A stretch of 37,757 nucleotides of DNA from a virus, in IMG/VR virus record IMGVR_UViG_3300045988_090449, one strand, 5' to 3'. Position 1 is the stretch's first letter. The number at the start of each line of letters is the position of its first letter. The translations under genes and the position numbers were made by a program. Under the pieces are notes generated by a model. It saw only the letters and a list, made by a program, of their open reading frames with translations. It ran no database searches and was not told where the DNA came from. Of the stretch, positions 142 to 35,384 are shown one piece after another.

Positions 142-755
142 AGTATCATCAAACTTATGCTAAAAGAACTCTTGTGAGATCAGATATAACTGCTGAATTC
201 TATTCATTCCCACAAAAATACATTTTAGGAATGAGTTCAGAAGCTGAGCAATGGGATAACTGGAAGGCGACTATATCTAGTATGTTAAGAATTGATAAGG
301 ACAGTGATGGTGATAAGCCGGTTGTTGGTCAATTCACAACACCAAGTATGAGTCCATTTACTGAACAGTTAAGAACTGCTGCAGCAGGTTTTGCTGGAGA
401 GTCTGGTTTGACTTTGGACGATTTGGGATTTGTTTCTGATAATCCAAGCTCTAGCGATGCTATTAAAGCAAGTCATGAGACTTTAAGAGTTATGGGTAAA
501 AAAGCTCAGCGATGTTTTAGTAGTGGTTTTTTAAATGTTGGATATGTTGCTAGTAGTATGAGGGATGAATTCGATTATGAGAGAAGTCAATTCTACAAAG
601 CTACAGTAAAATGGGATCCTGTATTTGAATCCGATGCATCTACTTTGAATTTGGTCGGTGACGGATTGATTAAATTAAACCAAGCTATTCCAGGATTTGC
701 AGATAGTGAGACTGTTAGAAAACTTACAGGATTAGAGGGAAAAGATAATGGATAA
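1..755 (+). CDS. Portal protein, C-terminal part (continuation of 37082..37757)
   Basis: In-frame continuation (codons start at position 3). The motif HRPDAVRPFGRSRIT is typical of SPP1 gp6-type portals. Lies immediately upstream of the MuF-like gene. Confidence 0.85.
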   Translation, partial: PYKTTVIKNKQKNIFKHSCSYASLVPIIHRPDAVRPFGRSRITKACEYHQTYAKRTLVRSDITAEFYSFPQKYILGMSSEAEQWDNWKATISSMLRIDKDSDGDKPVVGQFTTPSMSPFTEQLRTAAAGFAGESGLTLDDLGFVSDNPSSSDAIKASHETLRVMGKKAQRCFSSGFLNVGYVASSMRDEFDYERSQFYKATVKWDPVFESDASTLNLVGDGLIKLNQAIPGFADSETVRKLTGLEGKDNG

Positions 756-1983
756 GGATATAGTCCCTGATTTGTTAGATTTGATTGAAAAATCATTTCA
801 GAATAAATTTAAAAAAGATGAAAAGATAAAAAAACTTGAAACTCTTTTATTCGAAAAGAAAAGTAATCATATGAGCTCTAATGAATACGCTATGAGGTTA
901 GGTGATATTTTATCTGAGTGTTATCTGGAAAATATATCAGAAGGGATACTTCCTAATGATACTATGTATTATAATATTGCTAAGCGAATAATAGAGCCTA
1001 CATTGAGAAAAAACTATGAATTGGTATCAACGTATGCCTCAGACACTCAAACGAGTTTAAACAGGCAAGCTGGCTTAAATATTAAGGGTTTAAAACCAGA
1101 GATTAATCAAGACAGAATTGACGGTATTATAAACAGAGTTAGCGAGGACAAATTTGACAAAACAAAATGGGTGTTAAAAGAACCTATAGCAAATTTCACT
1201 CAAGCTGTTGTTGATGATACAGTTAAAACTAATGCAGAATTTCATAGTAATTTGGGTCTATCTCCAAAAATTGTAAGAAAAGAACACGGAAATTGCTGCG
1301 ATTGGTGTAAAAAGCTAGTTGGATCACATGAATATTATGATGTTAGCAATTCTGGAAATGATGTGTTCAGACGTCATAGGCATTGTAGATGCACTGTGGA
1401 GTATGTTCCGGATAAAAAAAGTAGACAAAACGTGCATACTAAAAGAAAGCGTAATTCTAATTTTAGTAACCAAAGAATTAAAAAAGCACAAGAATTACAG
1501 GATATCAGAGCGTTAAACAGACACGAGGATTCATTGCAGTACAAACAATATATTTCTGTGTTAGGAAAAGATAAAATGCCCAAATCTTTAAGCGCATTTC
1601 AAAAACTGAAATATGAAAATATCGAAGAATATGAGAAACTAAAAGACCATGTGTTTATTCAAAATAATTTCAATAAAGGTATATGGAAAGATAAGGTTAA
1701 TTTTGATAAACAGAAAAGGCATATGCAATCAACTGCTGGGGGAAATAAAAGTTATTTTTATGATGACATAGATATAGAAAAGTTGTATAATGAGTATAAG
1801 ATGACAGGTTATATTGAAAAAGACAGAAACGGCAAGAGAAAAAGTACAGAAAAAATTACGTTAAATGAAAAAAAAGAATTAGGGATAGATTTTTATACCA
1901 AGCGATCAATAAATGCTATGACTATACATTATGGCAAAACAGGTGTTCACTTAGTTCCTACATTTTTTGATACAGGAGAATAA
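748..1983 (+). CDS. Minor head / head morphogenesis protein (SPP1 gp7 / Mu F-like) with a ~190-aa C-terminal extension resembling MuF-linked polymorphic toxin modules
   Basis: CCDWC...HRHCRC Cys/His motif (aa 183-215) is typical of gp7/MuF proteins. Position is directly after the portal gene. The C-terminus carries KQKRH ... IHYGKTGVHLVP (aa 321-404). Confidence 0.8.
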   Translation: MDKDIVPDLLDLIEKSFQNKFKKDEKIKKLETLLFEKKSNHMSSNEYAMRLGDILSECYLENISEGILPNDTMYYNIAKRIIEPTLRKNYELVSTYASDTQTSLNRQAGLNIKGLKPEINQDRIDGIINRVSEDKFDKTKWVLKEPIANFTQAVVDDTVKTNAEFHSNLGLSPKIVRKEHGNCCDWCKKLVGSHEYYDVSNSGNDVFRRHRHCRCTVEYVPDKKSRQNVHTKRKRNSNFSNQRIKKAQELQDIRALNRHEDSLQYKQYISVLGKDKMPKSLSAFQKLKYENIEEYEKLKDHVFIQNNFNKGIWKDKVNFDKQKRHMQSTAGGNKSYFYDDIDIEKLYNEYKMTGYIEKDRNGKRKSTEKITLNEKKELGIDFYTKRSINAMTIHYGKTGVHLVPTFFDTGE

Positions 1984-22220: not shown

Positions 22221-23681
22221 TTATGCCGCTTGTAGATGTACTTTTAATAACTCGTATACTAAACCCATTGGTTCGCCAAATACAGCGTTATACGAACTCT
22301 CATCTACATCTCGAAGTTCAACATATACTTCGTGATCGTCACGATATTCGATGCGCTCAAATAATGAATGGATTATAGTCTTCAATTGATGAGGACTGTA
22401 GTCCATTTTTTGTTTTTGTGCTAAGATTTGAGCTTTTATATCTTCTAGTTGTACGTTAGTCGATGCTTGTTTTTCTGCAAGTTGTGATTTATAGATTTCC
22501 AAATCTTTTTCTGATGTGTTTAGTTTATTAACTAATGTATCTGATAACACTCCTTGTGCTATTGCATTCGTTATATTTGATATTTCTTTTTCCAGTTGAT
22601 TTACTTTTTGTACAAGTGCTTTTACTTCATCAACGTTGACTTTATTAAGAAGTGTTTCATATTTTGATTTTACAAGCTTATCTATGTTTTCTTCATTGAT
22701 TAGCACTTGCTTTAGCATTTCTATTATTGCTTCTTCAATTTGCTCTTTTGGTATTGTAAATCCACAATTTTTGCACTTATAGTAGTAATATTTTCTTCCA
22801 GTTTTACTTTTACCGGACACTCCTACCATTTTGTCATTGTAGTGATACAATATTCCTGTTAATAAATAAGGGCTATCGGCTTTTTTAGATGATTTGAATT
22901 CTTTGTCTTGTAGTAGTTGTTGCGCAAGTTTGAATTGCTCTTCTGTAATTATGTTAGGAACACCATGTTCTTTTTTTATTGTTTCTTTTTTCATGTTAAA
23001 TGTGTATACTCCTTTATACAAATCATTTCTTAATATTTTACTTAGAGATGTTCTTGTGAAATTCTTTCCTAGTTTTGTTTTGCATCCAATTGCATTTAAT
23101 GTATCTATTATTTTTCTTTGCGAGCTTCCATTTGTAAACATATCAAATATTAGTCTAATCGTTTTTGCTTCCAAATCGTTGATTACATATTTTTTATCTA
23201 CTATGTCATATCCCAGAGGTATTCTGCCACCATTAAACCAACAGTGGTATGCGTTCTCTTTCATTCCTTTGATTACTTCACGTGATAAGTTTGCAGAGTA
23301 ATATTCTGCCATACCTTCTAATAAGGACTCCATTATAATCGACTCTGGGCTGTCTGTGAGGTTTTCTACTACGGAGAGTAGTTTTGTACCATTTAGTTTC
23401 AATTTACGCTTGTATACGGCGCTGTCGTATCTGTCACGACTAAAGCGATCCAGTTTATGGACTATAACATAGTCGATATCTCCGACATCAGTTCTTTTAA
23501 TCATTTTTTTAAATTGTGGTCTGTCATCGGACCTACCACTAAGTGCGTGATCGCAGAATGTATCCATTATTTGAATGCCTTGTTCTGTTGAGAATTTCCT
23601 TATAGCCCTAAGTTGTGCATCGATTGATTCATCTCTTTGATTAGTACTTGAAAATCGTGCATAAGCTATTGCGGTTTTCAC
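22221..23681 (-). CDS. int: Large serine recombinase (phage integrase)
   Basis: N-terminal resolvase motif AYARFSSTNQ...DAQ. Recombinase domain. Zinc-ribbon YYYYKCKNCG. C-terminal coiled coil. GTG start overlapping the upstream stop (TAGTG). Confidence 0.9.
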   Translation of the reverse strand: MKTAIAYARFSSTNQRDESIDAQLRAIRKFSTEQGIQIMDTFCDHALSGRSDDRPQFKKMIKRTDVGDIDYVIVHKLDRFSRDRYDSAVYKRKLKLNGTKLLSVVENLTDSPESIIMESLLEGMAEYYSANLSREVIKGMKENAYHCWFNGGRIPLGYDIVDKKYVINDLEAKTIRLIFDMFTNGSSQRKIIDTLNAIGCKTKLGKNFTRTSLSKILRNDLYKGVYTFNMKKETIKKEHGVPNIITEEQFKLAQQLLQDKEFKSSKKADSPYLLTGILYHYNDKMVGVSGKSKTGRKYYYYKCKNCGFTIPKEQIEEAIIEMLKQVLINEENIDKLVKSKYETLLNKVNVDEVKALVQKVNQLEKEISNITNAIAQGVLSDTLVNKLNTSEKDLEIYKSQLAEKQASTNVQLEDIKAQILAQKQKMDYSPHQLKTIIHSLFERIEYRDDHEVYVELRDVDESSYNAVFGEPMGLVYELLKVHLQAA

Positions 23682-24046
23682 TATTTCACCTTCTTTTTAG
23701 ATCTATACGTTACTCTAAATTTAGCCCTATATTTATTTTCAGAGTAATCATTTTCACTTATAACGATATAAGGATTTTCTAAATTCTTCAGTAGTAAATA
23801 TTCATCACGATCCTCTTGATAAAAATATCCGATTTTCACATTATACGCATATATTGCTACTGCTCTTGGGTCATACTTATTGTTTGGTTCCTTTTTTACT
23901 TCTATATACTTTGAATCAATAGTATTGTGTCTTTTGCCTCCAGATTTTTTAAAAGCATATTCTATTTCCAAAGGGCACAAATTAACAAATAAATTTGCTT
24001 CCCATAACTCTTTTTTATTTCCTACTATATCTGATAATATTCCCAT
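23681..24046 (-). CDS. Stand-alone HIRAN-domain protein
   Basis: The motif EPNNKYDPRAVAIYAYNVKIGYF matches the HIRAN core pattern (EP.N.YD.NAI.V......IGY). GGAGGA SD. Its stop overlaps the integrase start. Confidence 0.6.
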   Translation of the reverse strand: MGILSDIVGNKKELWEANLFVNLCPLEIEYAFKKSGGKRHNTIDSKYIEVKKEPNNKYDPRAVAIYAYNVKIGYFYQEDRDEYLLLKNLENPYIVISENDYSENKYRAKFRVTYRSKKKVK

Positions 24047-24091
24047 AATATCCTCCTATATATAATTAATTTCATTAGTATTTAAAATCAT

Positions 24092-24709
24092 TTATCTATA
24101 TCCATAATAAGTTCTGCTAAATTCTGACATATACTTTTCTGGATGAATTATAGCTAATGATGGAAGATAAAATTCTTCATCATCATCCATCTTAGTTTTA
24201 TCTAAATACCACGTTAGGTTGTGTAATACAATGCGCATAGCTTCTTCGCTAACAATAAAATCACTACTTAATCTTTCAACTATTTCGTCGGTAATATTCG
24301 TATAGTACCTGTAACTTTCCAGAGTTTTTAAAACGATAAAGGGTGGGCATAGCAGCAGGCTTGCAAATGTATTAGCTTCAGTTTCACGAACATTGTCAGG
24401 TATGGAATCTAATTCTAATTTATGATTCAGCGCAATGTGTCCTAATTCATGCGCCAATGTAAATCTCTTTCTAGTTATATACTGATCTTTGTTTATGAAT
24501 ATAACGTTCTTATTATCATCCCCATACGTGAACCCATCTTTTGAGTATTCATAAAAATCTAATTTTGTTACATCATAGTGCATTATTTCTATTTGTAAAA
24601 CATCTTTAATTACTTGTTCTATGTCCAGACTTGGATCATAAACATTAATGCCGTTATTTCTTACAAAATTCACAAAAGTTTCAAAAACATAGTCATATCT
24701 TGCCTTCAT
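24092..24709 (-). CDS. immA: ImmA/IrrE-family zinc metallopeptidase (anti-repressor protease)
   Basis: HEXXH motif in FTLAHELGHIALNH. Its ATG overlaps the stop of the HTH repressor gene (TAATG), as in ImmR-ImmA pairs. Confidence 0.8.
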   Translation of the reverse strand: MKARYDYVFETFVNFVRNNGINVYDPSLDIEQVIKDVLQIEIMHYDVTKLDFYEYSKDGFTYGDDNKNVIFINKDQYITRKRFTLAHELGHIALNHKLELDSIPDNVRETEANTFASLLLCPPFIVLKTLESYRYYTNITDEIVERLSSDFIVSEEAMRIVLHNLTWYLDKTKMDDDEEFYLPSLAIIHPEKYMSEFSRTYYGYR

Positions 24710-25206
24710 TAATTCTCCTCATTTTTATCTATCATCAAGTCAATCATTTTAATTATTGCATCCATTTGCTCTTCATTTAAATCTTCAGCCTTTCTGGCTA
24801 TGAGCTTTTGATTGTTGGATTGGATGTATTGTTTTCTAAAATATGGATAGTAATTTTCAACAAATGTATATATGTTGTAGTAATCATAACTTCCATTTAA
24901 TTTTCTAATAGCTATTTCAAAATTTTTATCCATATCTATTTCATAGCTATATCCCCAACTCTCTAATTCTTCAAGTATTTCTGGGAGCTGTTCGAGTGGA
25001 TCAAAATTTTCTATTAACATCTCGATTGGAATTTCTAATGCGTTACATAGTTTTAGAACATTTTCAACATTACTTTTTAATATATTCCCATTGAGCATAT
25101 CTCTTAGAGTAGTATATTTTATCCCAGCAGCTTCGGAACATGCTTTTAGATTTCCATATTTTTGCTTAATTTTTTCCTTAATTATTCTGATAGTATCTTC
25201 GTCCAT
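24709..25206 (-). CDS. immR: cI/ImmR-like XRE-family HTH repressor (no S24 peptidase domain)
   Basis: N-terminal HTH (LKACSEAAGIKYTTLRDMLNGN). Divergent from the cro-like gene. Followed by ImmA. Confidence 0.75.
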   Translation of the reverse strand: MDEDTIRIIKEKIKQKYGNLKACSEAAGIKYTTLRDMLNGNILKSNVENVLKLCNALEIPIEMLIENFDPLEQLPEILEELESWGYSYEIDMDKNFEIAIRKLNGSYDYYNIYTFVENYYPYFRKQYIQSNNQKLIARKAEDLNEEQMDAIIKMIDLMIDKNEEN

Positions 25207-25226
25207 GTCACACCTCCGTTTTATTT

Positions 25227-25255
25227 ATTATATACGATATAACGTTATATTTCAA
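25227..25255 (-). promoter_or_regulatory. Leftward (lysogenic) promoter TTGAAA-17-TATAAT
   Basis: On the minus strand: TTGAAA (plus-strand 25250..25255), an exact 17-nt spacer, then TATAAT (25227..25232). Located ~20 nt upstream of the repressor ATG. Confidence 0.6.
25232..25250. promoter_or_regulatory. Operator-like palindrome in the leftward promoter spacer
   Basis: ATATAACGTTATAT (25237..25250) is a perfect 14-bp palindrome. The overlapping ATACG-N6-CGTTAT resembles the second operator. Confidence 0.5.
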
Positions 25256-25307
25256 TTAAAAATATTTTTAAATCGTAAAAAAATATAAAAAATTACGGTA
25301 AAGCGTA

Positions 25308-25336
25308 TTGTATATTATGATTAAGTACGCTATAAT
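25308..25336 (+). promoter_or_regulatory. Rightward (lytic/early) promoter TTGTAT-17-TATAAT
   Basis: TTGTAT at 25308..25313, a 17-nt spacer, and TATAAT at 25331..25336. Flanked by the inverted AGCGTA/TACGCT arms. Confidence 0.6.
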
Positions 25337-25354
25337 GTATTTAACAAGAAAAAC

Positions 25355-25370
25355 ATACGACATATCGTAT
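25355..25370. promoter_or_regulatory. Operator-like inverted repeat ATACGA-CATA-TCGTAT downstream of the rightward promoter
   Basis: Perfect 6-bp arms with a 4-bp spacer. Located between the -10 element and the cro-like SD. Confidence 0.5.
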
Positions 25371-25390
25371 AAGATAATCGGAGGTGTACT

Positions 25391-25627
25391 ATGTACAAAA
25401 ACTTAGCTCATGAAATGAAGCAAAGAAAAGTATCACAATTGATGTTATCAAATCTATTAGACGTAAGACCTGCTACGGTTTCAGACAAAATAAATGGAAA
25501 TAGTAAATTTTATTTTGATGAGGCTTTGAGGGTCAAGAAAGTATTTTTTGATAACTTGGACATTGAGTACTTATTTAAAACAGATGAATGTGAAGATGAG
25601 TTGTTCAGTCCCGAATACTATAAATAG
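25391..25627 (+). CDS. Cro-like XRE-family HTH regulator
   Basis: HTH (VSQLMLSNLLDVRPATVSDKINGN). GGAGGTG SD. Divergent from the repressor gene. Confidence 0.7.
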   Translation: MYKNLAHEMKQRKVSQLMLSNLLDVRPATVSDKINGNSKFYFDEALRVKKVFFDNLDIEYLFKTDECEDELFSPEYYK

Positions 25628-33435: not shown

Positions 33436-33682
33436 CGTAAACCAGCATTTCAAAACGTAAACCAGCATAAAATATTGGTTTACGGGGGCGTAAACCAATA
33501 AAAAAAATATTATTTACACCTGTAAGACAGTAAATTCAACGGTTTGAGATACTATGTAAACCAATATTTAATATTTACTATATAGAGGTATTAAAAAAGG
33601 ATATTAAAGAATATATAGCGTATTTATGTTTCTTTAATTCCTTTGTACGATACCTACATATACGCGTATAGGATTGGTTTAC
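33436..33682. repeat. Iteron-like cluster (six copies of GTAAACCA in both orientations) in an AT-rich intergenic region; putative replication origin or regulatory hub
   Basis: - Direct copies at 33437, 33457, 33490 and 33556.
- Inverted copies at 33476 and 33675.
- Copies 1 and 2 are CGTAAACCAGCAT, spaced 20 bp apart.
- Copies 3 and 4 form a perfect 12-bp inverted repeat: TATTGGTTTACG-GGGG-CGTAAACCAATA (33473..33500). Confidence 0.6.
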
Positions 33683-33699
33683 ATAGAAAAGAGGAAGAC

Positions 33700-34011
33700 A
33701 TGAGAGAGCGAGAAATAGAAAAAATATTCAGAAAAAATATTCAAGATTTGAACGGCATATGCTATAAGTTTGTGAGTCCTGGAAACTCAGGTGTGCCGGA
33801 TAGAATTGTAATATTAGAAAATGGAGAGGTGATTTTCGTGGAGCTAAAAACCGAAAAAGGAGTTTTATCCGCATTGCAAAAATCACAAATTAGAAAATTT
33901 AAAAACCATAATCAGAGAGTGTGTGTTGCCTATGGATTGAATGGGATACAAAATCTGATTGATAAAATTAAGAGATCAAGACTAGATTTGATAAAGGACG
34001 AGGAAAGATAA
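33700..34011 (+). CDS. VRR-NUC domain nuclease
   Basis: ATG at 33700 after AGAGGAAG (the track start at 33643 is an extension into the intergenic region). PD-(D/E)XK pattern GVPDRIVIL...VFVELKTEKG..S..Q. Confidence 0.75.
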   Translation: MREREIEKIFRKNIQDLNGICYKFVSPGNSGVPDRIVILENGEVIFVELKTEKGVLSALQKSQIRKFKNHNQRVCVAYGLNGIQNLIDKIKRSRLDLIKDEER

Positions 34012-35384
34012 TGGGGGATTTGGTATTACACGATTATCAAAAGTACTGTGTGGATAAGATTGTGGATAACAATAATATCGGATTGTTCCTGGATATGGGG
34101 CTAGGTAAAACTCTTATAACTTTAACAGCAATTAAGGATCTTATTTATAATAGATTTCAAGTTGGCAAGGTTCTTGTAATTGCACCTAAAAAAGTGGCGG
34201 AAGCTACTTGGCAAAACGAGATTGAAAAATGGGACGAACTACAAAACCTAAGAGTGTCTACTGTTTTGGGAAATGTAAATCAAAGAGTTAAGGCACTTAA
34301 CACTCCGTCCGATATTTACATTATCAATCGCGATAATGTTGTATGGTTGGTAGATTATTATAAAAATAATTGGCCATTTGATTTTGTGGTGTGTGACGAA
34401 TTTTCAAGTTTTAAAAACCACGAATCGAAAAGGTTCAAGGCACTTGCAAGTATCAAACCTCACATAAAAAGGCTTGTCGGGCTTACAGGAACACCAAGCC
34501 CTAATGGAATGTTAGATTTGTGGGCGCAAGTGTATTTATTGGATAGTGGTACTAGATTAGGTAGGAGCTTTTATGGTTTCAGAAATACATTCTTTGAAGG
34601 AGACTATATGGGATATTCTTATGATTTGCGAGAAAATTCAGAAAGTGAAATCACAAAAAGAATATCGGATATTTGCATATCAATGAAAGCGGACGATTAT
34701 TTGGAGCTTCCTGAATGCAGCGAAAATATAATTCCTGTGGCTCTTGATAGTAAATCCAAGAAAGCTTATGAGACTATGGAGAGAGATGCGATCTTAGAAA
34801 TTGAAAATGCAGATGATATTGATGCAACTAGTGCCGCTGCACTTTCTAATAAGTTATTGCAGTTGGCCAACGGAGCAGTTTATGACGAAGACCATAACTA
34901 TCACGTTATTCATGATTGCAAAATACAGGCGTTCCTGGAAGTGCTTGAGCAATTAAATGGAAAATCGGCGTTGGTGTTTTATAACTACAAGCACGATTTG
35001 GAGAGAATCCAAAAAGCCTTGACAAAAGCAAAAATCAATTATAGGAAATTGGAAACTCCACAAGACCAAAAAGATTGGAATGCAGGAAAAATCAACGTGC
35101 TATTAACACATCCTGCATCAAGTGCTTACGGACTGAATTTACAACAGGGCGGAAACCATGTCATATGGTTTGGGCTTAACTGGAATTACGAACTGTACAC
35201 ACAAGCAAATAAGAGACTACACAGACAAGGACAAAAAGAAAAAGTTATTATACACCATCTAGTCACGCAAGGAACTAGAGACGAAGATGTGATGGAAGCA
35301 TTGAAACGAAAAGAGAATGTACAAAATTATGTATTAGAGAGTTTGAAAGCAAGAATTAGAAAAGTAAAAGGAGAAGTTAAATGA
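34011..35384 (+). CDS. SNF2-family helicase/ATPase
   Basis: - Motif I: DMGLGKT.
- Motif II: VCDEFSSFKN.
- C-terminal helicase motifs: SAYGLNLQ, QANKRLHRQGQ. Confidence 0.9.
   Translation: MGDLVLHDYQKYCVDKIVDNNNIGLFLDMGLGKTLITLTAIKDLIYNRFQVGKVLVIAPKKVAEATWQNEIEKWDELQNLRVSTVLGNVNQRVKALNTPSDIYIINRDNVVWLVDYYKNNWPFDFVVCDEFSSFKNHESKRFKALASIKPHIKRLVGLTGTPSPNGMLDLWAQVYLLDSGTRLGRSFYGFRNTFFEGDYMGYSYDLRENSESEITKRISDICISMKADDYLELPECSENIIPVALDSKSKKAYETMERDAILEIENADDIDATSAAALSNKLLQLANGAVYDEDHNYHVIHDCKIQAFLEVLEQLNGKSALVFYNYKHDLERIQKALTKAKINYRKLETPQDQKDWNAGKINVLLTHPASSAYGLNLQQGGNHVIWFGLNWNYELYTQANKRLHRQGQKEKVIIHHLVTQGTRDEDVMEALKRKENVQNYVLESLKARIRKVKGEVK

Follow-up and report, generated by a model that had tools for sequence, protein, structure and literature searches.

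A HIRAN gene in the lysogeny operon

The IMG/VR virus record IMGVR_UViG_3300045988_090449 comprises 37,757 nucleotides, and this whole stretch of DNA is referred to here as the window. At positions 22221–25206 its minus strand carries four co-directional genes which encode, from the repressor end, an ImmR-like repressor, an ImmA/IrrE-type metalloprotease, a small protein of 121 residues and a large serine integrase (Table 1). An earlier reading of the sequence (the original prediction) took the small protein to be a stand-alone HIRAN domain hard-wired into an ImmR-ImmA-integrase operon and offered three roles for it: a DNA-damage sensor feeding the induction switch, a modulator of integrase directionality, or an exclusion or defence factor expressed from the prophage. 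The best explanation of the data presented here is that the HIRAN gene is mobile cargo (a 'moron') in a variable slot between the repressor and integrase genes of a temperate, low-GC phage.

The tight coupling described for the four genes is borne out by the open reading frames (ORFs) and their junctions. The repressor stop overlaps the ImmA start in TAATG at 24709, the stop of the 121-residue ORF overlaps the GTG of the integrase in TAGTG at 23681, and in the 45-nt gap ahead of the HIRAN gene the Shine–Dalgarno (SD) sequence AGGAGGA ends 4 nt before the ATG. The 205-residue protease is matched by Peptidase_M78 (PF06114, E = 1.6e-19) and has the HEXXH motif in the form HELGH. The integrase is matched by Resolvase (PF00239, 4e-28), Recombinase (PF07508, 1e-21), weakly by Zn_ribbon_recom, and by the integrase family phrog_95 (4e-99). 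In Pfam searches the 165-residue repressor gave only a sub-threshold match to HTH_3 (20.2 bits; cutoff 23) and no match to an S24 domain. Its AlphaFold2 (AF2) model, calculated from the single sequence, has a confident five-helix N-terminus, and residues 1–65 superpose on SinR, the 434 repressor and Cro, P22 c2, TP901-1 CI and DdrO (Foldseek probability 1.0, TMt 0.7–0.8). The description of this protein as a helix-turn-helix (HTH) repressor lacking S24 therefore stands.

The strongest sigma-70-like site of the region lies 20 nt upstream of the repressor gene, and a scan of the region gave no convincing terminator between the four genes. The arms of a 21-nt inverted repeat (25225–25245 and 25357–25377, 81% complementary) bracket the divergent promoter region of the repressor and Cro-like genes and could be operator sites. 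Because the HIRAN gene has an SD sequence of its own but no room for a promoter, it would be transcribed with the repressor. The HIRAN protein would then be present in lysogens, because this transcription would start from the promoter ahead of the HTH gene. The ribosome-binding site of the integrase is embedded in the last codons of the HIRAN gene.

Table 1 Positions of the features discussed (window coordinates unless another locus is named)
Feature	Coordinates	Strand	Remarks
ImmR-like repressor gene	24709..25206	-	165 aa; N-terminal Xre/Cro-C1 HTH, without S24 peptidase domain
ImmA/IrrE-type M78 zinc metalloprotease gene	24092..24709	-	205 aa; HELGH motif; PF06114
Spacer between ImmA and HIRAN genes	24047..24091	-	45 nt; SD AGGAGGA at 24051..24057
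Stand-alone HIRAN-domain cargo gene	23681..24046	-	121 aa
Large serine integrase gene	22221..23681	-	486 aa; GTG start
Integrase translation-initiation region, AAAGAAGGTGAAATAGTG	23679..23696	-	Within last codons of cargo gene
TGGCGAAC, last phage sequence before divergence	22271..22278	-	Inside integrase 3' end; putative attP crossover region
Candidate sigma-70-like promoter of the four-gene operon	25227..25255	-	TTGAAA-17-TATAAT, 11/12
Divergent switch region	25225..25377		21-nt inverted repeat; candidate operators
Cro-like gene facing the repressor gene	25391..25627	+	78 aa; phrog_3 transcriptional repressor, E = 1.8e-6
VRR-NUC gene	33643..34011	+	Replication module
SNF2 gene	34011..35384	+	Replication module
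TerB_N cargo gene, L031	4636-5586		316 aa; between ImmA and integrase genes
Alternative cargo, L115	1566-2570		
Alternative cargo, L117	1637-2623		
Alternative cargo, L118	1301-1648		
Alternative cargo, L119	1241-1873		

Identity of the 121-residue protein

On its own, the 121-residue protein scores 20.9 bits (E = 3.2e-4) against the Pfam HIRAN profile PF08797, below the gathering cutoff of 24.7 bits, and the match spans only profile positions 24–54 of 96. Word-indexed protein searches with it recovered only near-identical copies; when 1.84 billion representatives were searched exhaustively with HMMER, just 12 relatives were gathered. PF08797 matches 10 of 11 family members (best E = 6.7e-9), one of Streptococcus type (locus L020) scoring 38.7 bits, above the cutoff. 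The profile comparison proposed in the original prediction thus falls short for the single sequence and succeeds for its family. Compared with the PDB, the family profile finds lp_0118 (3k2y) at 2e-5 and the HIRAN domain of HLTF at ~ 5e-3.

The motif EPNNKYDPRAVAIYAYNVKIGY occupies residues 53–74. In the alignment of the relatives E53, N56, D59, A62, K71 and G73 are invariant and Y58 is nearly so, giving a family signature of E-x-x-N-x-Y-D…A…K-I-G-Y, the last four residues of which are K71-I-G-Y74 in the window protein. The segment N55-N56-x-Y58-D59 aligns to NNPYD of HLTF, whose residues N90, N91, Y93 and D94 are reported to form the pocket for the 3'-OH nucleotide (Kile et al., 2015; Hishiki et al., 2015).

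With the family alignment as input, AF2 gives a confident model (pLDDT 89.1, pTM 0.80), and the top 16 Foldseek matches to it in the PDB are all HIRAN structures (probability ~ 1.0, TM-score 0.42–0.61), with the next at a probability of 0.12 or less. These matches include HLTF/Rad5 HIRAN (4s0n, 4xzf, 5bnh) and lp_0118. In the BFVD database, phage proteins annotated as HIRAN are among the top structural matches. The likeness to HLTF, Rad5 and lp_0118 is one of fold and, for HLTF, of the N-N-x-Y-D core motif; identity is only ~ 12–13% and the window protein has a helix inserted after the first strand. HLTF and Rad5 differ further in that an SNF2/RING motor is fused to the domain, whereas the window protein has none and its context is a prophage lysogeny operon. 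The HIRAN assignment in the original prediction is thus confirmed by the family matches, the predicted fold and the pocket motif, and the 121-residue protein, though divergent, is a true HIRAN domain.

Comparison of the HIRAN gene with its copy in L017 gives 20 synonymous and 2 non-synonymous codon differences, and with that in L018, 19 and 2. Because synonymous differences far outnumber non-synonymous ones, the ORF is a real coding gene under purifying selection. The protein has no hydrophobic segment (KD19 maximum 0.75, threshold 1.6) and is predicted to be soluble.

A megablast search of the 3.3-kb region against GenBank phages gave no match. In tblastn searches of the same phages the 121-residue protein found only weak partial matches to SPbeta-like HIRAN proteins, and the Streptococcus-type member found weak partial matches to Pseudomonas phage HIRAN proteins. 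Judged from these nucleotide and tblastn searches of GenBank phages, this HIRAN subfamily was not seen in cultured phages. One of the weak partial matches is an annotated 211-residue HIRAN protein of Bacillus phage BUCT083 (L002, 10270-10905), and in SPbeta-like phages the 211-residue HIRAN gene lies ~ 3 kb from the gene for the AimR arbitrium receptor.

HIRAN genes recur downstream of phage repressors

We counted contexts over the loci of the family members together with those of remoter HIRAN proteins that the family profile retrieved (Table 2). In 13 of 15 independent contexts the HIRAN gene lies 12–61 nt downstream of a repressor module and in the same orientation; the one departure inside the 13 is L013, in which an additional ORF of 187 residues separates the HIRAN gene from the M78 gene. 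The upstream module may be of the ImmR/M78 type or of the S24 (CI/LexA) type, and the genes that follow may be serine integrases, tyrosine integrases or Abi genes. The recurrence of repressor module, HIRAN gene and integrase, for which the original prediction had proposed a survey, is thus widespread, and the synteny of repressor and HIRAN gene is independent of the type of repressor and of the type of integrase.

Table 2 Gene order around HIRAN genes, arranged by the upstream module
Upstream module	Loci	Genes that follow
ImmR/M78	Window, L018	HIRAN, serine integrase
ImmR/M78	L003-5	HIRAN, 186-aa ORF, tyrosine integrase
ImmR/M78	L012	HIRAN
ImmR/M78	L013	187-aa ORF, HIRAN
ImmR/M78	L019-21, L023	HIRAN, ~72-aa ORF, tyrosine integrase
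S24 (CI/LexA-type)	L001, L016, L017	HIRAN (98-100% identical), serine integrase
S24	L009-11	HIRAN, AbiD
S24	L014/15	HIRAN, DUF6414
S24	L022	HIRAN, tyrosine integrase
S24	L035	Zn-ribbon + transmembrane + HIRAN protein, 258 aa
S24	L037-39	Zn-ribbon + transmembrane + HIRAN protein, 271 aa; serine integrase
Winged-helix protein	L040/41	HIRAN + transmembrane + extracellular protein, 428 aa; serine integrase
Exception	L006/L007	OLD/GajA-like gene, HIRAN (P0005), 214-aa ORF, McrB-McrC
Exception	Streptococcus metagenome-assembled genome	Truncated HIRAN adjoining Abi_2

Both of the contexts that break the repressor pattern are defence-flavoured neighbourhoods, and the genes adjoining HIRAN family members include AbiD/Abi_2, McrBC, OLD/GajA-like genes and DUF6414. 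The longer HIRAN proteins P0013, P0017 and P0014, encoded in the same slot, have transmembrane segments (KD19 maximum 1.73–1.83).

At L006 (191-4221) and L007 (1-1801), P0005 is encoded 28 nt downstream of the OLD/GajA-like ATPase-TOPRIM gene, which matches GajA of PADLOC at 2e-177 and is found there without GajB. This arrangement may represent either a defence island or an uncommon pairing of OLD and HIRAN.

The slot between repressor and integrase is swappable

The closest comparison is with the IMG/VR contig 3300045988_097144 (L031), which carries the same ImmR, with ImmA and integrase each 97% identical to those of the window. In the slot between ImmA and integrase, a TerB_N protein (PF13208, 6e-20) takes the place of HIRAN, and no HIRAN gene was found in the 38.7 kb of this contig. 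No NCBIfam model matches this protein, the HIRAN protein or the HTH protein. The two cargo proteins have the same termini, MGIL at the N-terminus and KKVK at the C-terminus, and in each case the stop codon overlaps the GTG of the integrase.

The boundaries of the exchanged segment can be placed from alignments. On the right, identity resumes at AAAGAAGGTGAAATAGTG, which comprises the SD sequence and start of the integrase and marks the right-hand boundary of the cassette, because it is unchanged whether the cargo is HIRAN or TerB_N. On the left, phages of the S24 and ImmA types share only ~ 22 nt, within which the HIRAN SD sequence is found. A single phage lineage exists in three combinations: ImmRA-HIRAN-integrase, S24-HIRAN-integrase and ImmRA-TerB_N-integrase.

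Phages that share the replication module of the window (DUF2800 protein 64–65% identical in L115–L118 and 39% in L119) have yet other cargo in the slot: a transmembrane protein with an HNH nuclease domain, an RNase_T protein (a 3'-5' exonuclease of the DEDD type) with a BRCT domain, a transmembrane protein with DUF4352 and a 115-residue protein of no known kind. Several of these alternative proteins act on DNA ends, as HIRAN would. The original prediction of a hard-wired gene is contradicted by these loci under the very condition that it had set for its own refutation, since in a relative with a near-identical ImmR, ImmA and integrase the HIRAN gene is absent and its place is filled by TerB_N. 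The HIRAN gene is one of many interchangeable cargo genes in this slot and not a fixed part of the switch, and we are highly confident that it is swappable cargo expressed together with the repressor.

A similar short N-terminal motif (MGILSxI, MGFLSSLF or MGLFKKK) is present in several unrelated cargo proteins of the slot, as seen on comparison of P0004, P0007, P0011, P0018, the window protein and the TerB_N protein of L031. P0004 is an exception, with a hydrophobic N-terminus that resembles the transmembrane segment of P0013 and P0017. Possible explanations of the common motif are an amphipathic start that targets the membrane and a scar of recombination.

Relationship to known systems

The layout of repressor, protease and integrase genes agrees, as had been suggested, with immR-immA-int of ICEBs1 (PMC9956884): in both, an HTH repressor without S24, an M78 protease and an integrase are read in one direction from the repressor promoter. 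ICEBs1 differs in having no gene between immA and int and in its tyrosine integrase, whereas the window has a cargo slot and a large serine recombinase.

In its position the HIRAN gene resembles the superinfection exclusion (Sie) genes of lactococcal phages, which encode membrane-associated proteins and lie between int and the repressor (PMC7693887). It is found between repressor and integrase, in the same orientation and without a promoter or terminator of its own, and occupancy of the slot varies; with Sie2009 and TP901-1 orf2/3 (PMC7693887) it thus shares the slot, the co-orientation with the repressor, the variable occupancy and, for the window by prediction, expression from the prophage. 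The characterised Sie proteins are small membrane proteins which block DNA injection, whereas the window protein is predicted to be soluble and to have a DNA-end-binding domain.

A precedent in both domain and place is ThaL of pneumococcal prophages (PMC12637031), whose gene is also a HIRAN gene beside the repressor in a prophage lysogeny module. That slot too is variable, with other genes 'associated with lysogeny', szaL and spaL, at the equivalent place in other prophages (PMC12637031). The likeness rests on the domain and on the description, thaL being mentioned once in that work and annotated only. In the published description ThaL is a transmembrane protein encoded after a C1-type repressor, whereas the window protein is a soluble protein of 121 residues that follows ImmR/ImmA and is translationally coupled to a serine integrase. 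By description, P0013 and P0017 are the proteins with ThaL-like architecture.

HIRAN domains are also present in HipN and HipL of HipA-family systems, where they have been proposed to sense the ends of phage DNA (PMC8262856). HipN (PDC-M03B), a putative antitoxin of HipI kinases, is alike in being a prokaryotic HIRAN protein in a context of conflict or defence. It differs in that a HipS-like domain accompanies its HIRAN domain and a kinase gene adjoins its own gene; neither is found at the window HIRAN gene.

Proposed function

For the function of the cargo we favour, tentatively and at an even chance or a little less, the third role offered in the original prediction, an exclusion or defence factor made by the prophage and acting on incoming DNA. 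A soluble single-domain HIRAN protein with the N-x-Y-D pocket would grip free 3'-OH ends of DNA. Its targets would be the cohesive ends of incoming or replicating foreign DNA, primers of rolling-circle replication or recombination, and resected ends, and end joining, priming or recombination would be blocked without an enzymatic effector. Such steric occupation of ends is proposed because the HIRAN protein has no effector. The membrane-anchored relatives could act in the same way at the point of DNA entry.

Several observations point in this direction. The neighbours of family members include the defence genes listed above, the same slot in relatives holds cargo directed at nucleic acids (the transmembrane HNH protein and the RNase_T protein with BRCT), and the membrane-anchored HIRAN versions in the slot resemble Sie proteins. 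Genes for superinfection exclusion have been found by experiment in the slot between int and repressor of Gram-positive temperate phages (PMC7693887). HIRAN is already part of a predicted defence pair of PADLOC, PDC-M03 (HipA and HIRAN).

Other considerations weigh against such a function. A purely steric mechanism is speculative, as there is no membrane anchor, effector domain or partner gene, and a protein that binds 3' ends constitutively could also disturb replication or repair in the host. The defence neighbours are guilt by association in a small sample of short metagenomic contigs, and the strict placement after the repressor is equally compatible with tuning of lysogeny or induction. 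Prokaryotic HIRAN domains have been described as uncharacterized (PMC11090510).

The boldest form of the proposal, which we consider unlikely, is that the protein is an effector-less '3'-end cap' on the genome of a superinfecting phage or on transforming single-stranded DNA (ssDNA), preventing circularisation, priming or recombination. If true, this would shield the lysogen from other phages, or the prophage from deletion by transformation. It would be the first function shown for a stand-alone HIRAN protein of prokaryotes, and it would explain why both soluble and membrane-anchored HIRAN genes recur behind prophage repressors.

Alternative functions

A role in the lysogeny switch is rather improbable in our estimation. 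Here HIRAN would bind 3' ends at ssDNA gaps or stalled forks and either activate ImmA or dampen signalling by RecA filaments, setting the threshold of induction. The position directly after the repressor module fits such a role, as both the S24 and the ImmR/ImmA types respond to RecA-dependent signals; the pocket residues are kept in the family, and the way in which ImmA senses damage in ICEBs1 is unexplained. A HIRAN cargo gene of a prophage in S. Typhi was classed as 'required' by transposon-directed insertion-site sequencing, alongside prophage repressors (PMC3632133). This may hint at maintenance of lysogeny or at an antitoxin, although the gene is of another family and polar or antitoxin effects may account for the result. 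Against this stand the variety of the contexts and of the cargo. The same backbone of ImmR, ImmA and integrase occurs with TerB_N replacing HIRAN, a near-identical HIRAN gene follows an S24 repressor which needs no ImmA, ImmA is missing from half of the HIRAN contexts, and relatives have unrelated cargo in the slot. HIRAN versions that are membrane-anchored or partly extracellular are moreover a poor fit to a sensor of forks or gaps. The damage sensor feeding ImmA that the original prediction put forward is therefore disfavoured: an obligate role of this kind is unlikely, and we rejected it on the grounds that the near-identical gene lies behind an S24 repressor and the same ImmR/ImmA pair is found without HIRAN.

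Protection of the prophage against curing by transformation would require HIRAN to capture the 3' end of imported ssDNA, lowering the homologous recombination that deletes prophages. Transforming ssDNA enters with its 3' end first, Streptococcus-type prophages and a Streptococcus metagenome-assembled genome are the source of several family members, and the membrane-anchored versions in the same slot are compatible with such a role. Transformation and the prophages of pneumococci are locked in an arms race, and one of these prophages, phiRMV8, carries thaL, the transmembrane HIRAN lysogeny gene (PMC12637031), which also fits. On the other hand, the host of the window phage may not be naturally competent, its HIRAN protein is soluble and thaL is known by annotation alone, and we regard this reading as improbable. 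The PolA protein of the window phage has its best match in Fusobacterium phage phiPaco (55%), and the GC content is 29–39%.

The SNF2 and VRR-NUC genes to which the original prediction drew attention are both present elsewhere in the window, and L013, another HIRAN-bearing phage, also has SNF2. A split equivalent of HLTF/Rad5, in which HIRAN would remodel forks with the phage SNF2 helicase and VRR-NUC nuclease during phage replication, is nonetheless very improbable. SNF2 belongs to an early replication module (DUF2800, Enc34 ssDNA-binding protein, PolA, VapE, VRR-NUC, SNF2) which is encoded on the other strand and transcribed as a separate unit. Close relatives of the SNF2 protein are present in 70 viral contigs, and this HIRAN family in only 3 of the 70. 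In contig 097144 SNF2 is 98% identical and no HIRAN gene was found, and the Streptococcus-type HIRAN contigs are absent among the SNF2 matches. SNF2 is thus part of a widespread replication module, and the partnership was rejected for lack of co-occurrence.

A recombination directionality factor (RDF) or other accessory of the integrase, translationally coupled to it, is scarcely credible. The RDFs of serine integrases are small and diverse, the HIRAN stop overlaps the integrase start, and HIRAN and integrase remain paired across swapped immunity modules. The 97%-identical integrase of L031 is, however, preceded by TerB_N with the same overlap, HIRAN relatives precede tyrosine integrases, Abi genes or McrBC, and an RDF co-expressed with the repressor in a lysogen would promote excision. 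The HIRAN gene is not co-inherited with its cognate integrase, and with this the modulator of integrase directionality was set aside.

Least probable of all is an antitoxin of the HipN/PDC-M03B type neutralising a HipA-family kinase, which we rejected since PADLOC matches the window protein (E = 6.9e-4) and P0013 (5e-8) to PDC-M03B only weakly and over no more than the HIRAN core, the 121-residue protein has no HipS-like domain, and no gene for a HipA-like kinase was found in the neighbourhood in the window or at any related locus examined.

The integrase C-terminus and other features

The integrase gene of the window differs at its 3' end from that of the integrated copies. In the window and L018 the holin and lysin genes of the phage come next, and the protein has 486 residues ending …GEPMGLVYELLKVHLQAA (…VHLQAA). 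In L001, L016, L017 and L031 (region 6989-7065 in L031) phage sequence stops at TGGCGAAC and gives way to a host tRNA-Arg(ACG) gene, the first of a tRNA cluster; the integrase of these integrated copies has 471 residues ending …GER. TGGCGAAC supplies the 3' end of the tRNA (…GTTCGCCA). Because the prophage copies diverge after TGGCGAAC into tRNA-Arg(ACG), the attP crossover is placed within the integrase ORF, and this large serine integrase appears to target the 3' end of a tRNA gene. No convincing inverted repeats were found around the presumed crossover. Integration would then replace the integrase C-terminus, converting the excised form of 486 residues to an integrated form of 471, a swap which recalls integration-dependent immunity in mycobacteriophages. 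The tail that is lost ends in AA, like an ssrA-type degron.

At L037 (6869-8800), L038 and L041, the serine integrases encoded beside the longer transmembrane HIRAN proteins are fused to fragments of Mn_catalase or have such fragments downstream, which suggests that the integration target of these phages is a manganese-catalase (cotJC-like) gene. Elsewhere in the window (748-1983) a 411-residue protein resembling head-morphogenesis proteins (weak VG15 match) ends in an Ntox50 domain ('bacterial toxin 50', E = 2.9e-17), and may be a virion-delivered toxin or a polyvalent protein.

Significance

The existence of HIRAN domains in prokaryotes was recognised from sequence in 2006, when Iyer, Babu and Aravind reportedly drew attention to stand-alone HIRAN proteins of bacteria and prophages. 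The gene in the window is of a kind already noticed, the HIRAN proteins of prophage lysogeny modules, to which it is a minimal, soluble addition and not a new system. The first reading of the locus is corrected in that neither the ImmR/ImmA switch nor integrase control has the HIRAN gene as a fixed part. Instead, HIRAN genes, both the small ones and those for membrane-anchored proteins, recur as cargo between repressor and integrase, with two types of repressor and two types of integrase. This positional association is robust across the repressor and integrase types and gives a tractable handle on the function of prokaryotic HIRAN domains, for which immunity or self-protection of the prophage through binding of DNA ends, rather than cutting, is a candidate mechanism.

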